Source: Enterobacteria phage RB33. From it: a DNA stretch of 64,000 nucleotides. How positions within the stretch are numbered: position 1 is the stretch's first letter; every line of letters begins with the position of its first letter. The position numbers and the translations under genes are program-made. The notes beneath the pieces were generated by a model, which searched no databases, had not been told where the DNA came from, and saw only the letters and a program-made list of their open reading frames with translations. The stretch lies in sequence record KM607001. One strand, written 5' to 3'. Shown in pieces: positions 2,189 to 20,531 of this stretch.

Positions 2189-2392
2189 TTAATTCATATT
2201 ACGCTTAATAACTTCAGCAACTTCTAGTAGTTCATCTTTAGTTGCGGTGTCAGATTGAATTTTATCTCTAATATCTTTAAAGCGGTTTTTAAATTCTTCG
2301 GCTTCTCCCATATCGAAAAAGCGTTGAATGATTCTATATTCTCGATGAACTGCTTTATCAAAAAGTTCTAAATTTACTTTATATGATTTCAT
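2189..2392 (-). CDS. hypothetical small protein (rIIA.1 position)
   Basis: 67-aa ORF in track, immediately upstream of rIIA on the same strand. Confidence 0.6.
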
Positions 2393-2417
2393 TTCAATAT
2401 CCTCATTTGCCCAATTA

Positions 2418-2447
2418 ATTATACCACATCCTTGTGGTAAAGTAAAC
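2418..2447 (-). promoter_or_regulatory. T4-type early promoter (GTTTAC-18 bp-TATAAT) upstream of rIIA.1/rIIA
   Basis: minus strand reads GTTTACtttaccacaaggatgtggTATAAT; hexamers at 2442-2447 and 2418-2423. Confidence 0.6.
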
Positions 2448-4267
2448 TACTGGCTCATCCATTCTTTACGAAGGTCAGCGTTATCTCCCATGAGCATTTC
2501 AAAAAGCTCTTTCCAGTTCTCAGGAAGTTTAACAACATCATATACTGGATTTTGAATCATCTCACGATATTCAGATTTTTCCAAAGAGCCAAGTCCTTTA
2601 ATATAACGGATGCTATGTTTAGGTAGAGCATCTTTGGCACTCTCATATTCAGCGACTGTATAAAACCATTCTTGTTTTTTGCCGACCTGAGCGATGATTA
2701 CAGGAGTTTTGACAAAACGAATTCGTCCTTGCTCAAACAATTCTGGCCAATTACTAAAAAATCCGAGCAGAGAAGGATAAATGCTTCCTAGACCATCATG
2801 GTCAGCATCAGTCATAATAGCAATATTATGATAATTCAAGTTTTCAGCTTTTTCACCAAGAACTAATCCAGTGATTGCGCAAATATCAAATAGTTCTTTG
2901 TTTTTAAGCATATCAGCATATGACATACCCCAACTGTTGAGAACTTTACCACGTAATGGATAACCACCATGAAGTTCTTTATCACGAACATCAATAAGAT
3001 ATCCGATAGCCGAATCACCCTCAGTCAAGAACAATGTAGTATCAGCATCTTTACCACAAAGATTCGCTTTAATATGTTTATGAACCTTAGCTTTAGAAGC
3101 CTTTTTAGCTGCTTTAGTTTCTGCTGCTTTTTCTGCCGCCAATTTACGAGCCAAAGCAGCTTCAATAATCGGCATTAAAATTGCTTCATTATTTAGAATA
3201 GCACGTGAAATCTTTTTAGCATCAAGTTGAATATGACTACGAATTTCGCCAAATGGAGAAGTCAAACGCTCTTTAGTTTGAGAATCAAATCGCATGTTTT
3301 TCATATCACGAACAAACATAACGATAGTCAAACATTCTTTGACACGTGCTTTAGTTACATCAATTTTGAACTTACGTTTGATTTGTGGAATAAGGTCTTC
3401 ACAAATATCATCCATAACACAGTCAATGTGATGGCCACCATTCTTAGTGTGAATGTTATTCACGTAAGTTAATTGACGAAATCCATCCGGTGAACGACCA
3501 ACCGCAATAGAACAATTTTCTTGCTCTTGAACAATAGCATGTTCATCATACTGCCGTGCATATTTCTTAAAATTACCCTGAACCTTTTTACCATTAAAGG
3601 TAAATTGAATATCAGGATAAACAACAGCAAGTGTCTGGAGACGATCTAATGTAATGTCAAGATAAACTTGGGACAACTCATTAGTTTCAAATGACATAAA
3701 ATCAGGAATGAAAGTAACACGAGTTCCTTTCCATTTTCCAGGAATATCTTCCCATGATTTATTTTCCATGCCATTTGAACAACGAACTACAATATTATTT
3801 TGACCATCACCAGTTTCACCGACAAACATCACAGAAAAAATGTTTGTCAAACTAGAACCAACACCGTTCATACCGCCGGTGACGCGTTCTTTATCATCAC
3901 CGAAGTTACCACCTGCTTTTGGAATAGTCCATGCAGCAACAGGACCAGGAATTTCTTCACCGGTAGGTGTTTTAACCATCGCCTGTGGAATACCGCGACC
4001 GTTATCTTCAACTGTTACTTGATTGTTTTTAATAGTAACATTAATTTTATTTGCGAATTTAAACTTAGTACGAATACCTTCATCTACTGAGTTATCGATA
4101 ATTTCATCAATAAGCTTAACAAGACCAGGTACATACTGAACACTTTCCCATTTACCAAACAGAAAGCGCTCATGCATTTCATTAGCTGAAGAGCCAATGT
4201 ACATGCCGCTACGCTTTTTGATATGTTCAATATCGCTCAGAATTTTAATTTCATTCTTAATCATCAC
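2447..4267 (-). CDS. 39: DNA topoisomerase II large subunit (GyrB-like ATPase), contiguous gene 39 (606 aa)
   Basis: 606-aa ORF with GHKL ATPase and toprim-like motifs (NGRGIP, TEGDSA); one uninterrupted reading frame. Confidence 0.9.
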   Translation of the reverse strand: MMIKNEIKILSDIEHIKKRSGMYIGSSANEMHERFLFGKWESVQYVPGLVKLIDEIIDNSVDEGIRTKFKFANKINVTIKNNQVTVEDNGRGIPQAMVKTPTGEEIPGPVAAWTIPKAGGNFGDDKERVTGGMNGVGSSLTNIFSVMFVGETGDGQNNIVVRCSNGMENKSWEDIPGKWKGTRVTFIPDFMSFETNELSQVYLDITLDRLQTLAVVYPDIQFTFNGKKVQGNFKKYARQYDEHAIVQEQENCSIAVGRSPDGFRQLTYVNNIHTKNGGHHIDCVMDDICEDLIPQIKRKFKIDVTKARVKECLTIVMFVRDMKNMRFDSQTKERLTSPFGEIRSHIQLDAKKISRAILNNEAILMPIIEAALARKLAAEKAAETKAAKKASKAKVHKHIKANLCGKDADTTLFLTEGDSAIGYLIDVRDKELHGGYPLRGKVLNSWGMSYADMLKNKELFDICAITGLVLGEKAENLNYHNIAIMTDADHDGLGSIYPSLLGFFSNWPELFEQGRIRFVKTPVIIAQVGKKQEWFYTVAEYESAKDALPKHSIRYIKGLGSLEKSEYREMIQNPVYDVVKLPENWKELFEMLMGDNADLRKEWMSQ

Positions 4268-7068: not shown

Positions 7069-7688
7069 TTATCTCATTTCAATAAAATCTACGAGTTCGG
7101 CATAGGATTTACGGAACATTACTTGATGCCCACCAATGATAACTTGGTCATCTGGTACTTCGTATACAGCAAGATAAAATCCTTTCGAAGATAATTCTTC
7201 CCGCTCTTCTCGCGTGAACCATCTCATCATATCATACTCACTAGCGAAAGCAAAATGATAAAGAGCTATAAACCATCCTGGAATATGATATTCTACTCCA
7301 ACATAATCTTTCTTGAACTTAGTATTAATTACTATATTAGCGTTTTTAACTAATAGTTTATCTTCGTGTGGTAAAGGAATTCTTTTATTATTATCGCTAT
7401 GATGCGATATTCTACTCCAACATAATCTTTCTTGAACTTAGTATTAATTACTATATTAGCGTTTTTAACTAATAGTTTATCTTCGTGTGGTAAAGGAATT
7501 CTTTTATTATTATCGCTATGATGCATAAAATTAGGTCTGTCATAACCTACGTGTAATAGCCACTCTTCACTCCATGAATCTATTATACTCCTGTACGGCG
7601 TTATTTGAACACAAAGATTTCGACGTATTGTTATAGCATCTTCATAATCAAGAATACTAAACGATGATTCAACACGATAAATTTTCAT
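7069..7688 (-). pseudogene. motB.2-position gene disrupted by a 119-bp tandem duplication (frameshift, premature TAG at 7350)
   Basis: ORF from ATG 7688 reads through copy 7406-7524 in frame, then out of frame in copy 7287-7405; removing one copy restores a 166-codon ORF ending at TAA 7069-7071. Confidence 0.6.
7287..7524. repeat. perfect tandem duplication, 2 x 119 bp
   Basis: 7287-7405 and 7406-7524 are identical base for base. Confidence 0.9.
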
Positions 7689-13542: not shown

Positions 13543-13746
13543 TCACGATTTATCCCCATAGATGTCTCTCATCAATTTAAGCGCTGAGCGTTCTAGTTTC
13601 TTTTCTTTCTCAGCACTAATCATTGATTTCATCCATTCTTCTGATTCGTTCTGCATTTCTTTATTTGCTTGTTCAACCCAACCATCGTCAATGTACATTG
13701 AGTTTGGTCTATTGAACCATTCAAACATTTTCTTCAGAACTTTCAT
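13543..13746 (-). CDS. hypothetical protein, 67 aa
   Basis: ORF in track; its start lies inside the proximal copy of the 91-bp duplication. Confidence 0.55.
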
Positions 13747-13868
13747 TTGTTTTACCTAAAACAACAGTAGGAGCATCGTCAATGTACATTGAGTTTGGTC
13801 TATTGAACCATTCAAACATTTTCTTCAGAACTTTCATTTGTTTTACCTAAAACAACAGTAGGAGCATC
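13683..13868. repeat. perfect tandem duplication, 2 x 91 bp with 4-bp CATC junction microhomology
   Basis: positions p and p+91 identical for p = 13683..13777. Confidence 0.9.
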
Positions 13869-14309
13869 ATCAAATTCATGAATTTTTAGCAAATTTGGAT
13901 GTAAACTATTCCATACAGAAGAAATAAAGTATGATAACGCATCTTCACTCGCAATTATAAATTTGTTTCCTTTGTCTATTTTCCAGTTATATACTGAATC
14001 GTACGAATAAAAAGATAAGGGTTTATCATTATATTGTTCTGCGCTAACATTAATGTATTCGGATTTAGTAAATGCTTCAATTGCTCTAAATGGAATATTT
14101 GGTACAGTTTCAATAATACCAATCTTTTTAAGTTTTATTTCAGCATCTTCTGGAACTGGCATTGAAACGAAATTTTCTACGAGATACATTGGGTCACAAT
14201 AACCCTTATCAATCATTACGGCTACAGTAATTGGAACATCTTTAGCAAACGACATGCTATTACTGCTAATATACATTTCAAACAAAATCGCTTCCATAAT
14301 TTTCCTCAA
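13812..14309 (-). CDS. hypothetical protein, 165 aa (mrh position)
   Basis: ORF in track; C-terminus and stop lie in the distal copy of the 91-bp duplication. Confidence 0.55.
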
Positions 14310-15873: not shown

Positions 15874-16074
15874 ATGGTACAAAAATTAATGGCACTTGTT
15901 AATGCCATCAAAGGTAATAAAAAGCGTATAGCTTTTACTATTTCTGTTATGGTAGGAATTTTACTCTGGAACTTTATTTTATCACCAATTGCAATTGCGC
16001 ATGGTGTTAATATTCCAGTAGTTACTCTTGATACATTTGTAGATTTAGCATTTGCTTTAGTTGGGTTAATTTAA
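15874..16074 (+). CDS. small hydrophobic protein (66 aa, about 2 TM), plus strand
   Basis: AAGGAGG 4 nt before ATG; ORF fills the gene-56 to gene-61 gap exactly and its stop overlaps the gene 61 stop. Confidence 0.45.
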   Translation: MVQKLMALVNAIKGNKKRIAFTISVMVGILLWNFILSPIAIAHGVNIPVVTLDTFVDLAFALVGLI

Positions 16075-17099
16075 ATCTTAGCATATTTAGATAACCGCAT
16101 TTTAGCCATTAACCCCTGGGCAATATTATTTTTCATATATTCCATAATTTGTTCAGGGGTTGCACCTTCCTTTCTAATCATATCATTAACATCTTTTGAT
16201 TTCCAGGGAGATTTATCCCAAAACATAACCCTTTCTCCTGCATCAACTAATTTAGTCATCCGTTTAATAGTGTCAGGGTGACGAGGTTCATTATCTAAGA
16301 CCCACACTCGTCTATCTTTAAATGGAACAATTTCTAGGTCTAATTGACCACCCGTAATAGCTATACCATTTTCAATGAAAAGGGAATCGATAGGTCCTTC
16401 TAGAACATATACATCGCCATCTTTAACTCGTTCGACTCCATAGATTTTTGTTGCCTCAGGATAAGCTTTGATGGTGATATATTTTTGAGGAGCATCTTTC
16501 TTTAATGCACGCCCTTGAAACGACTCGGCTTTTCCGTTAGCATTATAAATTGGAATAACAAGACGAGGCTCAGGTATTTCCTTTTTATATGTTCCCGGTG
16601 CTATGCTATTAACTAATTTAGGCCATTCGGTTGTAAACCAAAGATATTTCCATTTATCCTTTGGAATACAACGAGCTTTTACATATTTTATAATTGCATG
16701 GTCTTCCGCCAGTTTATCTAATCTAACGCATGACGGAAGAGATTTAATTATTTTCTTCTCAGGTTGTTTAGGAAGTTCTTTAGGTTTTTCTACTGGACGA
16801 CTTTTACCTTTTTCTTTTCTTATTTCAAAGATATACTCACGATATAAATCAGGTTCAAACTCCTTTAAATATATTCCGATTGGTGCATGATAGTTACAGT
16901 TATAGCAATGAATATTTCCTTCATTATTATCACCATAATACCATCCACGAGCTTTATTCTGGTCGGTTTTTGAATCTCCACAAACAGGGCATCTAAACCG
17001 TAATTTAAAAGTTGAACTATTATTTACTTGTGTGAATTTAGGTAAATGAGCTAATGCACGATACGCAAATTCATTATCAATCCAAGGTATTGATGACAT
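16071..17099 (-). CDS. 61: DNA primase gp61, 342 aa
   Basis: N-terminal zinc ribbon CPVCGDSK...CYNC and toprim-type core; 342 aa as T4 gp61. Confidence 0.9.
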   Translation of the reverse strand: MSSIPWIDNEFAYRALAHLPKFTQVNNSSTFKLRFRCPVCGDSKTDQNKARGWYYGDNNEGNIHCYNCNYHAPIGIYLKEFEPDLYREYIFEIRKEKGKSRPVEKPKELPKQPEKKIIKSLPSCVRLDKLAEDHAIIKYVKARCIPKDKWKYLWFTTEWPKLVNSIAPGTYKKEIPEPRLVIPIYNANGKAESFQGRALKKDAPQKYITIKAYPEATKIYGVERVKDGDVYVLEGPIDSLFIENGIAITGGQLDLEIVPFKDRRVWVLDNEPRHPDTIKRMTKLVDAGERVMFWDKSPWKSKDVNDMIRKEGATPEQIMEYMKNNIAQGLMAKMRLSKYAKI

Positions 17100-17101
17100 T
17101 T

Positions 17102-17266
17102 TTACTCTTCTTTTTCTTTAGATTCCTCTTTTTTCTTTTTAGGAATCTGTTCAGGACCTTTATTTACTACAGCGCCTGATGTTGTTCCAGTAGAGATATT
17201 TTCAGGACTACCACCTGAATCTCCAGCGACCATATCTTCTTTGATAAATTCTTTATATGTTTTCAT
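17102..17266 (-). CDS. 54-aa mini-protein with internal-protein-like capsid-targeting N-terminus
   Basis: coordinate-checked translation MKTYKEFIKEDMVAGDSGGSPENISTGTTSGAVVNKGPEQIPKKKKEESKEKEE; below the track cutoff. Confidence 0.5.
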   Translation of the reverse strand: MKTYKEFIKEDMVAGDSGGSPENISTGTTSGAVVNKGPEQIPKKKKEESKEKEE

Positions 17267-17670
17267 ATTAACCTCTATTCATAAAAGCATTAAAAATTTG
17301 GTCATCAATAGATGGCGCAGTAATATTTTCTGCATCATTTAGCAAATCATTAATTTCATCAGATAGCATAACACATGTACCTTTATTTCCTGTAATTGTT
17401 ACTGCGCAATTACGAACGTTTTCTTTATTAAATTTTAGGTTAATATTTTCGTAATGAAAATCCTTTAATGCTGAATATATTTTTAAAATAAAATTGTCTT
17501 TTACTACAATAAACCCAACCTCACTATTAAAACGTGGTTCATGGAAACTGTAATAAACCTTTTCATCTATAAAATCGTATGAAATTTTTTCCATTTTTAA
17601 ATATGAAAATTCAGAACTATACATATTAACCTTTATTCATAAAAGCATTAAAAATTTGGTCATCAATAGA
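17264..17670. repeat. 49-bp direct repeat (48/49 identical) at the 3' ends of two paralogous genes
   Basis: catattaacctCtattcataaaagcattaaaaatttggtcatcaataga at 17264-17312 and 17622-17670. Confidence 0.8.
17268..17624 (-). CDS. hypothetical protein (61.1 position), 118 aa
   Basis: ORF in track; C-terminus DDQIFNAFMNRG shared with the next ORF. Confidence 0.6.
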   Translation of the reverse strand: MYSSEFSYLKMEKISYDFIDEKVYYSFHEPRFNSEVGFIVVKDNFILKIYSALKDFHYENINLKFNKENVRNCAVTITGNKGTCVMLSDEINDLLNDAENITAPSIDDQIFNAFMNRG

Positions 17671-18246
17671 AACATTTACTTTAGACTGTTTTTCTGATGG
17701 TAATTCATATCCACATATTACAATTTTGTGATCAATATCAAAATACACAGAAGCAATATGATTAATGATGTTTTCAGTAAAGTCTAAATCAACATCAATA
17801 TCTTTTTGACCACAGCCCAAAGGATAAATAATGCGAGTAATTCGATTATCTTTAACAAATATTCCACCGACATACTCTGTGCTGCGTTTAAAGTCTACAC
17901 GCCGACGAAATGAAAAATATTCAGGCTCTCTATGAGCTCGGCTCATAGGACACAACGAGTAACTAGAATAAGAGATGTCAAATCCTACGCCTTCGATATG
18001 AGCCAAAGTGTCATGATTAAACCAATTATAATCGTACGCCAAATCCATTAGATTATAATATGTAAAAGGCACCGGATTAACATCATTAGTCACAAGCATG
18101 TAATTAGCAACTGCTATAATTTCATTGTTTTTAACGAATACAAACCGTGATTGATGCGAATGACCTGGACCCGCGTTTTCACGATTAATGATATAACACT
18201 GAGACTTTTTATATTTGTAAGAATCATACTTATACATTTGAAACAT
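17626..18246 (-). CDS. hypothetical protein (61.2 position), 206 aa
   Basis: ORF in track; C-terminal half paralogous to the 118-aa ORF. Confidence 0.6.
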   Translation of the reverse strand: MFQMYKYDSYKYKKSQCYIINRENAGPGHSHQSRFVFVKNNEIIAVANYMLVTNDVNPVPFTYYNLMDLAYDYNWFNHDTLAHIEGVGFDISYSSYSLCPMSRAHREPEYFSFRRRVDFKRSTEYVGGIFVKDNRITRIIYPLGCGQKDIDVDLDFTENIINHIASVYFDIDHKIVICGYELPSEKQSKVNVSIDDQIFNAFMNKG

Positions 18247-18539
18247 TATTCACCTACCACTTCAGCAATGATATTTTTGTTATTAAAGTTTTTATCGCAA
18301 TACAGAACATAATTATACTGCATTACACCACCAGACTTAAGCTGTTTTTGCACTTCAGCTTTCATTTCAGGACGATCACGCTTAACGATATTCATAATAT
18401 CTGCTTCAATTTGAGTTTCAACCTCAGTCTGATCCGCAGTCATAGACCATTCGCACAAATCTTTATCATAACCTGCCATAGCAGGCTGAGCAGCACAAGA
18501 AGCTAAAGCAAAAATTGTGGCAAAGATAAATTTTTTCAT
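18246..18539 (-). CDS. sp: Spackle-like periplasmic protein, 97 aa with signal peptide
   Basis: start moved to MKKFIFATIFALASCAAQPAMA preceded by GAGGAG; size and position as T4 Sp. Confidence 0.65.
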   Translation of the reverse strand: MKKFIFATIFALASCAAQPAMAGYDKDLCEWSMTADQTEVETQIEADIMNIVKRDRPEMKAEVQKQLKSGGVMQYNYVLYCDKNFNNKNIIAEVVGE

Positions 18540-18600
18540 GATTAATCTCCTCAGTAGTTTATGTTTATATAGTATCTCAATTTCCAATAAAAGTAAACAG

Positions 18601-18861
18601 TTATTTTAAAACTTTTGCGTAATCACATGTTACAAACTGTTTCTCTAGCTTAACGATCTTACGAAAATACCTTTTACACTGACGAATCTGTCGCTTCGTA
18701 GGACGTACAGCAAACTTAATAAATTCCACTCGACCAAATGGAGGACTTTCTTCTGCTGGAATATCTAACACCAATTCCCACGTATCTGCAATAAGTGCTT
18801 TGAATTGCGTATTTTTCCTGACGTTATACGGAGTAGTAGGTTTAAATAAAACAATATGCAT
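18601..18861 (-). CDS. hypothetical protein (61.4 position)
   Basis: ORF in track; start moved to MHIVLFK. Confidence 0.5.
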   Translation of the reverse strand: MHIVLFKPTTPYNVRKNTQFKALIADTWELVLDIPAEESPPFGRVEFIKFAVRPTKRQIRQCKRYFRKIVKLEKQFVTCDYAKVLK

Positions 18862-18862
18862 A

Positions 18863-19045
18863 TTATCCTCGGCAATCCACTTCGCACACTTTCTTGTCAT
18901 CAATGAAAGCTTTAACTAATGCTTTATTAACTTCAGCATACTGAGTAGTAGCCCATTGAACGTCATCTTTCATCATTGTGGTTTCTTTAGTAAACATGCT
19001 TTCATTCTTAAACCACCCCATAAAAACTACCTTTACCAATTCCAT
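18863..19045 (-). CDS. dmd: Dmd-like antitoxin (inhibitor of RnlA/LsoA), 60 aa
   Basis: 60-aa ORF next to gene 41; sequence recalled as Dmd-like. Confidence 0.65.
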   Translation of the reverse strand: MELVKVVFMGWFKNESMFTKETTMMKDDVQWATTQYAEVNKALVKAFIDDKKVCEVDCRG

Positions 19046-19074
19046 AACAATCTCCTCATTTAACCAACAAGACT

Positions 19075-19104
19075 ACTATACCATAGTCTCGTCAGCTTGT
19101 AAAC
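19075..19104 (-). promoter_or_regulatory. T4-type early promoter upstream of dmd
   Basis: minus strand GTTTACaagctgacgagactatggTATAGT. Confidence 0.55.
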
Positions 19105-20531
19105 TAAAATTTTAATTCATTTGCCAAAGCATCTAACTGAGCTCGAGTCGATTCGTTTCTTTGATAGCGATTCTGTTCAGCCTGAATCTGCTGTGAACCT
19201 GCTACCTCACTCACTTCACTTGGAGTAGAATCTTGTTCAATTTCTACCCATTTCTGATTTCCTTTTTGAACACCCATCAAAAACTTATTCCATTTGTTCT
19301 TATCACCATATCGTGATTTGATTTGCTTAATAAGTTGTTGTTCAGCAGCTGCTAACTCCTCGGTTTCAATGACCGCAAGCATAAAATCAGCTGTTGCTGG
19401 AAGACCGGCAGATTCTGCGATATCGCTCATGTTAACATCAGAAGAATCCCAAGCTTGTTTACCAACCTGTGCTGCAGTCCAAAGAACAGTTTCGGTTTCA
19501 ACAGCCAGAGCACGCAATTCCTCTGCAATAGCTTTAACAGTTGTGTAACTATTTTCTGAATAAACCCGGATGCGACAAGATTTACAAATACCTAGATAGT
19601 CGACAATAATGATTGTTGGAACAAAATTCTTCTTGAGCTTCAATTCGTTTAAAAGTGATCGAAATGTATTAGCGTCTGCTCCACCAGTAGGATACTGTTT
19701 AACGATTAAACGACCGAGAGTAGATTTCTCACGCCATTTTTCCATTTTTCCTTTATACTCAGCGTAAGAAATATGCCCATCATCAATGTCATCAAGAGAA
19801 ACATCAAGCATATTAGCATCAATACGCTTAGCGCAGACTTCTTCTGCCATTTCCATGGAAATGTAAAGAACATTATGTCCGAGCTGTAAATAATCTGCCG
19901 CCAATGAACACAGACCTAATGATTTACCAACGTTAACGCCAGCCATTAAAACGTTCAGTGTTCCAGTTTCAGCTCCGCCTTTCGTAATTTTGTTTAGAAT
20001 TCTGAGTTTAAATGGAACCTTACGAGCTTTATTCATATAAGATAGCCAACGTGCTTCGTAGTCATCCATCCAATCATGACCAACGTAACTATCAAATGAA
20101 ATTGATAATGCCTGGCGCATGATGTCAGGAATAGCACCTACATCTGGCATTTTCTTATTTCGTTTTTCCGGAGGAAGTTCAGCATTAGTTTGAATTTCGA
20201 TTATTTTAGACGTAGCATTAAACATCGCCCTTTGCTGAACATATTTTTCTGTTTCTTTTACTAACCAGCTGTGGTCTTCCGGAGAATCAGCCAGTTTTGA
20301 AATAAGTGTTTTTACACCAGAATATTCTGTTTCAGTAAATGAACTATTTTCTAATGCAACATTTAACGCATTAATAGATGGAACGCTATGATACTCATTG
20401 ACATGAGATTTAATTAATTTGAATGTATTTTTAGCTGGACCACTTTCAAAATATTCTGAATCCATATATGGCCAAACTTTTGAAAAATAAGCTTGATCAA
20501 ATATGAGATGAGAAAGAATAATTTCTACCAC
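19104..20531 (-). CDS. 41: replicative DNA helicase gp41 (DnaB-like), 475 aa
   Basis: Walker A GVNVGKS; 475 aa as T4 gp41. Confidence 0.9.
   Translation of the reverse strand: MVEIILSHLIFDQAYFSKVWPYMDSEYFESGPAKNTFKLIKSHVNEYHSVPSINALNVALENSSFTETEYSGVKTLISKLADSPEDHSWLVKETEKYVQQRAMFNATSKIIEIQTNAELPPEKRNKKMPDVGAIPDIMRQALSISFDSYVGHDWMDDYEARWLSYMNKARKVPFKLRILNKITKGGAETGTLNVLMAGVNVGKSLGLCSLAADYLQLGHNVLYISMEMAEEVCAKRIDANMLDVSLDDIDDGHISYAEYKGKMEKWREKSTLGRLIVKQYPTGGADANTFRSLLNELKLKKNFVPTIIIVDYLGICKSCRIRVYSENSYTTVKAIAEELRALAVETETVLWTAAQVGKQAWDSSDVNMSDIAESAGLPATADFMLAVIETEELAAAEQQLIKQIKSRYGDKNKWNKFLMGVQKGNQKWVEIEQDSTPSEVSEVAGSQQIQAEQNRYQRNESTRAQLDALANELKF

Follow-up and report, generated by a model that had tools for sequence, protein, structure and literature searches.

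The repeated gene junction between sp and primase

The window, that is, the whole 64-kb stretch of DNA analysed here, is identical in sequence to Escherichia phage RB32 (Tequatrovirus), and each window coordinate equals the RB32 coordinate plus 119. The region under study belongs to the early-gene cluster, in which all genes are on the minus strand, and the order of transcription is 41 (helicase), dmd, 61.4, sp, 61.2, RB32ORF033c, 61.1 and 61 (primase). The first-pass annotation had placed 61.2 and RB32ORF033c after primase, which is wrong, because in the direction of transcription both are upstream of gene 61; the sizes that it gave for them, 206 and 118 amino acids (aa), are correct. The sp stop codon overlaps the start of 61.2 (TAATG). 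The features of the region are given below in the direction of transcription.

18246..18539, minus strand: gene sp (spackle), left boundary of the variable slot
17626..18246, minus strand: gene 61.2, that is AdfA, 206 aa, family A (Pfam PF23813, RB32 annotation, PMC11257639)
17622..17670, minus strand: module copy 2, last 14 codons of 61.2/AdfA (SIDDQIFNAFMNKG)
17630-17633, minus strand: Shine-Dalgarno sequence of module copy 2, weakened to AAGG by the mismatch at 17633
17622-17624, minus strand: ATG of RB32ORF033c, preceded in module copy 2 by TAA and one spacer base
17268..17624, minus strand: RB32ORF033c, 118 aa, family B (phrog_4122)
17264..17312, minus strand: module copy 1, last 14 codons of RB32ORF033c (SIDDQIFNAFMNRG)
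17272-17275, minus strand: consensus-like Shine-Dalgarno sequence GAGG of module copy 1
17268-17270, minus strand: stop codon TAA of module copy 1, followed by one spacer base and the ATG of gene 61.1 (17264-17266)
17102..17266, minus strand: gene 61.1, 54 aa, with ribosome-binding site and start codon from module copy 1
16071..17099, minus strand: gene 61 (DNA primase), conserved backbone downstream of the slot

The two genes end in a direct repeat of 49 bp, located at 17264-17312 and 17622-17670 (plus-strand coordinates), with the copies 358 bp apart and 48 of the 49 bases identical. It covers the gene ends and the ATG of the gene that follows, as had been noticed at first reading. A search of the 64-kb window allowing up to three mismatches detected just these two sites, and no match appeared in any of 100 shuffles, which rules out a chance origin. 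Beyond the 49 bp, no DNA similarity between 61.2 and RB32ORF033c was found.

The coding (minus) strand of the repeated module reads TCTATTGATGACCAAATTTTTAATGCTTTTATGAATA[G/A]AGGTTAATATG. Its last 14 codons, referred to here as the tail, encode SIDDQIFNAFMN[R/K]G, that is S-I-D-D-Q-I-F-N-A-F-M-N-[R/K]-G, which bears out the C-terminal peptide previously reported as common to both ORFs. The Shine-Dalgarno sequence GAGG is written inside the final two codons (Arg-Gly), and the 3' part of the module consists of TAA, a single T and the ATG of the next gene. The only mismatch (17275/17633) falls within the Shine-Dalgarno sequence, where GAGG is changed to AAGG, and Arg to Lys, in the copy preceding RB32ORF033c (17622-17670). 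The 13-nt sequence AGAGGTTAATATG occurs in the window at these two junctions only, and since it is not reused elsewhere in the window, a generic ribosome-binding cassette was ruled out.

Two tandem duplications are also present in the window, one at 7287-7524 (119 bp, 2.0 copies, 100% identity) and one at 13683-13873 (91 bp, 2.1 copies, 99% identity). The latter copies the start of an ORF, which is seen at 13543-13746 and again at 13721-13837.

Protein families that end in the module

Gene 61.2 matches the Pfam AdfA family PF23813 with an E-value of 2.9e-129 and 429 bits (cut-off 27), residues 1-206 being aligned to profile positions 2-211, and by this sequence match the 206-aa gene is AdfA (anti-DarT factor A), a known anti-defence factor. 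The phage protein AdfA reportedly binds the DarT1 ADP-ribosyltransferase toxin and neutralises it (PMC11257639; PMC10286901), and it is T4 gp61.2 according to LeRoux et al. 2022, as that work is cited in the same two papers. A His at position 164 represents the active allele (PMC11257639; PMC10286901), and in RB69 AdfA the change from R164 to H enables DarT1 binding (PMC11257639). At the position aligned to RB69 R164, the RB32 protein has His (NIINHIAS vs NNINRIAS in the RB69-like NHEP29).

Many Tequatrovirus AdfA genes are chimeric, with an RB69-like N-terminal third (MIYYMHKN..IFVIVKDNEIVAW) joined to a T4-like C-terminal part; such chimeras were noted in wV7 (L004), Sf21 (L027) and L024 (proteins P0011-P0023). 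In phages with flanking genes that differ by only 2-4%, the bodies of AdfA, that is, the genes outside the tail, have a DNA divergence of 20-23%, which is consistent with fast turnover of an anti-defence gene. We also observed that the hairpin motif [FI]V[FI]VK[ND]N-x-I occurs twice in AdfA, once per half (residues 34-47 and 126-140), that the N-terminal and C-terminal halves show weak similarity to each other (shuffle p=0.03), and that family B of Gaprivervirus is closer to the N-terminal half (p=0.004). AdfA may, to judge from these similarities, be an internal duplication of a B-sized domain.

A single-sequence AlphaFold model of AdfA was unusable (pLDDT 33), and a model built with a 24-sequence alignment was moderate, with a pLDDT of 67.5 overall and of 50-60 over the tail, which is predicted there as a C-terminal helix with low confidence. 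No solved structural relative was found by sequence search, and the PDB fold search gave no meaningful match. The BFVD structure search returned proteins of the A, B and C families only, with the tail adding to the scores.

RB32ORF033c is annotated in GenBank as 'similar to gp61.2'. The full protein scores 32.2 bits against Pfam AdfA (cut-off 27), covering the C-terminal half of the profile only, and with the tail included it matches 61.2 with a BLASTP E-value of 2e-8. When the tail (last 14 residues) was removed, the AdfA match was gone from the Pfam search and the BLASTP E-value against 61.2 was 0.011; the tail-less protein still aligned to AdfA in hhalign (E=0.0022 over 55 columns) and in a shuffle test (p=0.0025), and the residual A-B similarity is centred on the motif VG-x-I-x-VKDN-x-I. 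The paralogy assumed in the first-pass annotation is therefore upheld in part: RB32ORF033c and 61.2 are probably distant paralogs, with weak similarity remaining outside the tail (p about 0.002-0.01), but most of the similarity signal comes from the tail, as the tail-less BLASTP result indicates. In sequence, RB32ORF033c is of half length and has weak similarity to the C-terminal half of AdfA, and the database label 'AdfA' for this 118-aa protein hinges largely on its 14-residue tail.

A word-indexed homolog search returned just 5 close relatives for B and 16 for A. An exhaustive HMMER search against 1.8 billion representatives yielded no more than three B clusters at 50% identity; two further HMMER matches to B, both long, multi-stretch proteins, look spurious. 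No mention of RB32ORF033c was found in the literature. In phage T2 (L003, LC348380), the gene annotated '61.2' at 2719-3045 is the 118-aa family-B gene, not AdfA, and in the T2 record its start is placed later, at a length of 108 aa. Experiments have employed T2 as a phage that 'naturally lacks adfA' (PMC11257639); although treated as a phage without adfA, it has a tail-sharing family-B gene at that position.

A codon-degenerate scan together with BLAST searches revealed the same tail on a third family, C (122-145 aa, phrog_8539), which is found in Dhakavirus and Gaprivervirus and is typified by C6 ORF33. Family C matches Pfam AdfA through the 14-residue tail alone, with 16.3 bits, under the cut-off. 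Outside the tail, no similarity of family C to A or B was detected (hhalign E=0.36 and 0.15, respectively; shuffle tests of the body not significant), and the aligned part of its Foldseek match (E=2.7e-4) includes the tail. With a C-terminal peptide in common with AdfA, B and C are candidate families of small counter-defence proteins.

Divergence of tails and bodies, and gene content of the slot

To compare the two parts of the genes, the bodies of A and B were placed in a codon alignment (309 bp), in which identity is about 31% for protein, 43% for DNA and 36% for third positions, that is, at saturation. Over the last 14 codons, every third position is identical between A and B, and the 49 bp are 98% identical. 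Residues shared by the two RB32 proteins are encoded by identical codons in 15 of 30 cases in the body vs 12 of 12 in the tail, and the contrast pooled over three A-B tandem genomes is highly significant (Fisher p=2.4e-7). These comparisons show that the tail is far younger in sequence than the gene bodies. A single old duplication of the 358-bp unit should have left the whole unit evenly diverged and, since the bodies are saturated and the tail is near-identical, it cannot explain the pattern. The first-pass annotation had considered the junction an older event of the same kind as the 119-bp and 91-bp exact tandem duplications. This does not hold, because those are 99-100% identical throughout and the unit studied here is unevenly diverged (98% identity over 49 bp vs about 43% over 309 bp).

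Between orthologs, the synonymous identity of the tail follows that of the body, as in the following comparisons.

RB32-B vs L013-B: tail 0.55, body 0.42
RB32-A vs NHEP29-A: tail 0.82, body 0.71
C6-C vs L009-C: tail 0.69, body 0.80

Because orthologous tails diverge at synonymous sites, selection on the DNA sequence cannot explain the identity of the copies. The core DDQIFNAFM is invariant in all sequences examined, which indicates that the peptide is under strong purifying selection. One could suppose an old local tandem duplication that included the junction, in which the tail was kept identical by purifying selection on the peptide and by AT-rich codon bias. The genes are indeed neighbours with a common orientation and weak similarity outside the tail, and the selection on the protein is real. 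Peptide selection, however, does not fix synonymous sites: orthologous tails differ between genera at 5 of 11 codons capable of synonymous change, and at these sites the paralogous tails within one genome are identical. From codon usage alone, the observed tail codon matches would be expected with P=1.5e-3 in RB32 and P=1.2e-5 in DK-13, values that rule out codon bias as the cause of the synonymous identity; the shared tail codons of Gaprivervirus are minor codons. Family C, moreover, has the same tail with no detectable similarity in the body. We regard an old duplication maintained in this way as very unlikely.

The tails of one genome co-vary in two independent lineages. In Tequatrovirus, the A and B tails both read GAT GAC CAA..GCT TTT..AAT, and in the Gaprivervirus genomes DK-13 and L013 the C and B tails both read GAC GAC CAG..GCC TTC..AAG CGA. 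An N-to-K replacement is common to the C and B tails of Gaprivervirus and is lacking in the orthologous Dhakavirus C tail. Such covariation within genomes, as read from the tail sequences, is concerted evolution. Homogenisation is incomplete in some tandems (wV7, L014), where the two tails have 2-4 differences. RB32 and Sf21 have flanking genes that are 96-98% identical, modules that match at 48/49 and 47/49 positions, and bodies that are 77% (A) and 83% (B) identical. As the modules are as conserved as the flanks and the bodies are less so, the tails behave as recombining backbone. We infer from the comparison of genomes that the 49-bp identity reflects continuing recombination or gene conversion.

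The 49 bp might instead act as a cis-acting nucleic-acid element, either an RNA structure or operator for the next gene or a promoter/terminator cassette similar to the PeSLs discussed below, given that the following gene has its ribosome-binding site and start codon within the module. In copy 1 the Shine-Dalgarno sequence can pair with upstream tail codons in a weak hairpin (-11.1 kcal/mol, z=-1.7). This hairpin does not form in copy 2, which folds less well than its shuffled versions (z=+1.55), and no stable RNA fold common to both copies was found. No terminator-like site was found in 16900-19200; promoter-like sites numbered 10 in the region against a shuffle mean of 11.3, with none on the coding strand inside either module copy. 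These fold, terminator and promoter scans ruled out an RNA structure, terminator or promoter in the module. The synonymous positions of the module vary freely between genera, and the gene downstream of it also differs by lineage, being 61.1, a 73-aa ORF, a 65-aa ORF or B, so that a cis-acting element appears highly improbable.

The 73-aa ORF was detected in phage C6 (L007, about 2286-2507, minus strand; MFVLTQFSKAVYSYSC...ARPTKRQLRKLKK), where it is unannotated, lies directly after C6 ORF33 and starts at the module ATG. It resembles RB32 gp61.4 (…AVRPTKRQIRQCKR…), and ORFs of this type are kept in all Dhakavirus and Gaprivervirus loci examined. In Gaprivervirus-type loci, a homing-endonuclease gene is located immediately downstream of primase (DK-13, L025, 4443-5192; Yersinia phage P8, L026, 4286-5053); RB32 is without one there.

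All four combinations of A and B exist between sp and 61.1.

sp, A, B, 61.1 (both genes): RB32, wV7, Sf21
sp, A, 61.1 (A only): T4, T6
sp, B, 61.1 (B only): T2, ASO78A
sp, 61.1 (neither gene): phiC600P9

Tequatrovirus has tandems of A then B, an arrangement counted in about 156 records, and the order C then B was seen in Gaprivervirus DK-13, in Yersinia phage P8 and in two IMG/VR contigs. In 709 phage records the module was located at 907 places, about 198 genomes having two copies, and the families number 486 (A), 336 (B) and 86 (C) records, with a sum of 908. These counts over 709 records were taken from BLAST summaries, and about 30 loci were read base by base.

The boundaries of presence and absence coincide exactly with the module when RB32 is compared with T4, T2, ASO78A and phiC600P9. 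When one 358-bp period is removed from RB32 in silico, the result is collinear with T4 and the junction is free of indels, and the tandem of L033 minus 358 bp gives a gap-free alignment with L029, an A-only locus, at 99.0% identity. Upstream of the module, T4 with A only and T2 with B only are unrelated, and they are identical from its first base on. If A-only genomes arise by crossover or exchange at the module copies, their AdfA tail is predicted to be of the downstream type, AGAGGT, and this was checked on new contigs. AdfA tails ending in AGAGGT had 61.1 directly next to them in 7 of 7 A-only loci, which include two AdfA backgrounds unlike that of T4. AdfA tails ending in AAAGGT or AGAGAT were followed by B in 8 of 8 Tequatrovirus tandems, in which the downstream copy has AGAGGT. 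The rule relating tail variant to gene order holds in 15/15 loci.

In every tandem examined (RB32 and loci L004, L024, L025, L026, L027 and L031-L034), the upstream module copy, which provides gene B with its ribosome-binding site, has a G-to-A change inside the GAGG Shine-Dalgarno sequence. The upstream variants are AAAGGT, AGAGAT (L034) and CGAGAT (Gaprivervirus), and the last copy always has GAGGT. This looks like a repeated weakening of the start signal of B despite homogenisation of the remainder of the module, and the retention of a weak upstream Shine-Dalgarno sequence needs an extra explanation, such as selection.

The presence or absence of B among close relatives could also be attributed to a recent horizontal insertion of RB32ORF033c, the repeat being a one-off by-product of target duplication or microhomology with no continuing role. 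In phages without 61.2, the sp stop is followed by TTAGAGGTTAGTATG, and in B-only phages this sp-B junction resembles the 3' end of the module, so that an unequal crossover there could have built the tandem. A recent origin is nevertheless at odds with an A-B tandem that is old and widespread, with orthologous tandem bodies that differ by 17-23% (Sf21, L024), and with the analogous C-B tandem in Gaprivervirus, which has its own co-varying tails. In addition, the A-only state recurs, each time with a tail of the downstream type, on three or more AdfA backgrounds, and the slot in RB32 has no mobile-element gene beside it. We consider the insertion hypothesis unlikely.

The loci without 61.2 have a 12-nt spacer, TTAGAGG(T/C)TA(A/G)T, between the sp stop and the ATG (phiC600P9, L006, 3217-3230; ASO78A, L005, 2575-2588). 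By its sequence, this spacer could be a short homology for the unequal crossover that builds or dismantles the tandem. A simple microhomology deletion that joins the sp end to the tail end was rejected as the origin of the sp-B junction, because it does not reproduce the observed sequence.

Proposed role of the module and known systems

We consider it likely that the 49-bp module is a recombination linker and a translational-coupling junction at the right end of the variable slot between sp and 61.1/primase. The slot of T4-type (Tevenvirinae) phages holds one or two small genes of families A, B and C, each ending in the module with its conserved C-terminal peptide DDQIFNAFM, which is predicted, with low confidence, to form a terminal helix. 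According to this model, the Shine-Dalgarno sequence and the TAA-N-ATG junction of the module would hand ribosomes to whichever gene comes next. The module would be the sole DNA common to the alternative genes and, in single-gene phages, would be continuous with the downstream backbone.

Selection on the peptide would keep enough DNA identity for the recombination system of the phage, and homologous recombination would use the module as a site of crossover and gene conversion. These events would keep the copies near-identical while the bodies diverge, and would allow whole genes to be added, removed or exchanged in frame, as in the 358-bp difference between the arrangements of RB32 and T4. The change could go in either direction, with B lost from a tandem or gained. 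In each recombinant, the upstream gene would be intact, and the Shine-Dalgarno sequence, stop and start would be regenerated for the downstream gene. The homology needed for T4 recombination is given as less than about 50 bp by Singer et al. 1982, as cited in PMC2839356, a paper that discusses linker-mediated modular shuffling and the short homology need of T4 recombination.

A crossover site that lies in the gene ends themselves would spare the reading frame and downstream translation, and would offer a sequence-level route for gene turnover of T-even phages in an anti-defence neighbourhood (dmd, sp, adfA). Judged by the sequences compared, the shared end is a modest example of phage modular evolution and not the scar of an old duplication. 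A bolder reading, which we think doubtful, is that the slot between sp and 61.1 is a recombinase-independent 'cassette rack', with 49-bp ends, a docking helix and counter-defence genes that are swappable in one crossover. If this were true, T-even phages would stack, drop or swap specificity modules by one homologous crossover, AdfA and, by extension, B and C would act against different variants of DarT or other toxins, and in phages described as being without adfA, T2 among them, a functional relative of half the size would be present.

We compared the locus with systems already described. An integron-like cassette system was ruled out, because integron cassettes depend on a dedicated integrase and a structured attC site, and the locus has no recombinase gene and the module no conserved structure. 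As for AdfA itself, the 118-aa protein resembles it in being nominally above the Pfam threshold, but differs from it in that only the C-terminal half is matched and the match is lost without the tail. Unlike a simple tandem duplication, such as those of 119 and 91 bp, the unit shows uneven divergence.

Concerted evolution by gene conversion between tandem paralogs is a general phenomenon, and the module resembles it in that one segment of the paralogs is kept near-identical in each genome and varies jointly from lineage to lineage, and the rest of the genes diverges. It differs from typical cases in that the tract is only ~36-49 bp long, near the minimal homology reported for T4 recombination, and spans a gene boundary.

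The PeSL cassettes and the classical linker idea come closest to the module. In RB49 and phi1, PeSL cassettes are short repeats bordering non-essential genes in a hyperplastic region, and PeSLs are intergenic elements of about 100 bp with a sigma-70-like promoter and a terminator stem-loop (PMC2839356; PMC4122927). The module behaves like them, but is not a PeSL. In both cases a short conserved repeat stands at the borders of non-essential genes, indels between close relatives coincide with the copies, recombination between copies would excise or insert one gene, and the element bears expression signals of its neighbour. The module, however, is 49 bp long and mostly coding (14 codons of the upstream gene), has translational signals (Shine-Dalgarno, stop and start) in place of a promoter and terminator, and is restricted to one locus and three gene families. 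The Botstein/Campbell 'linker', as presented in PMC2839356, consists of conserved sequences flanking interchangeable modules, in which crossovers yield viable, correctly expressed recombinants. The homology boundaries of the alternative genes studied here (T4/T2, RB32, L029) likewise coincide with the 49-bp module, which differs from the classical linker in that it doubles as the functional C-terminus of each interchangeable protein. Since the linker is at the same time a protein C-terminus, the same 49 bp are subject both to selection on the protein and to recombination.
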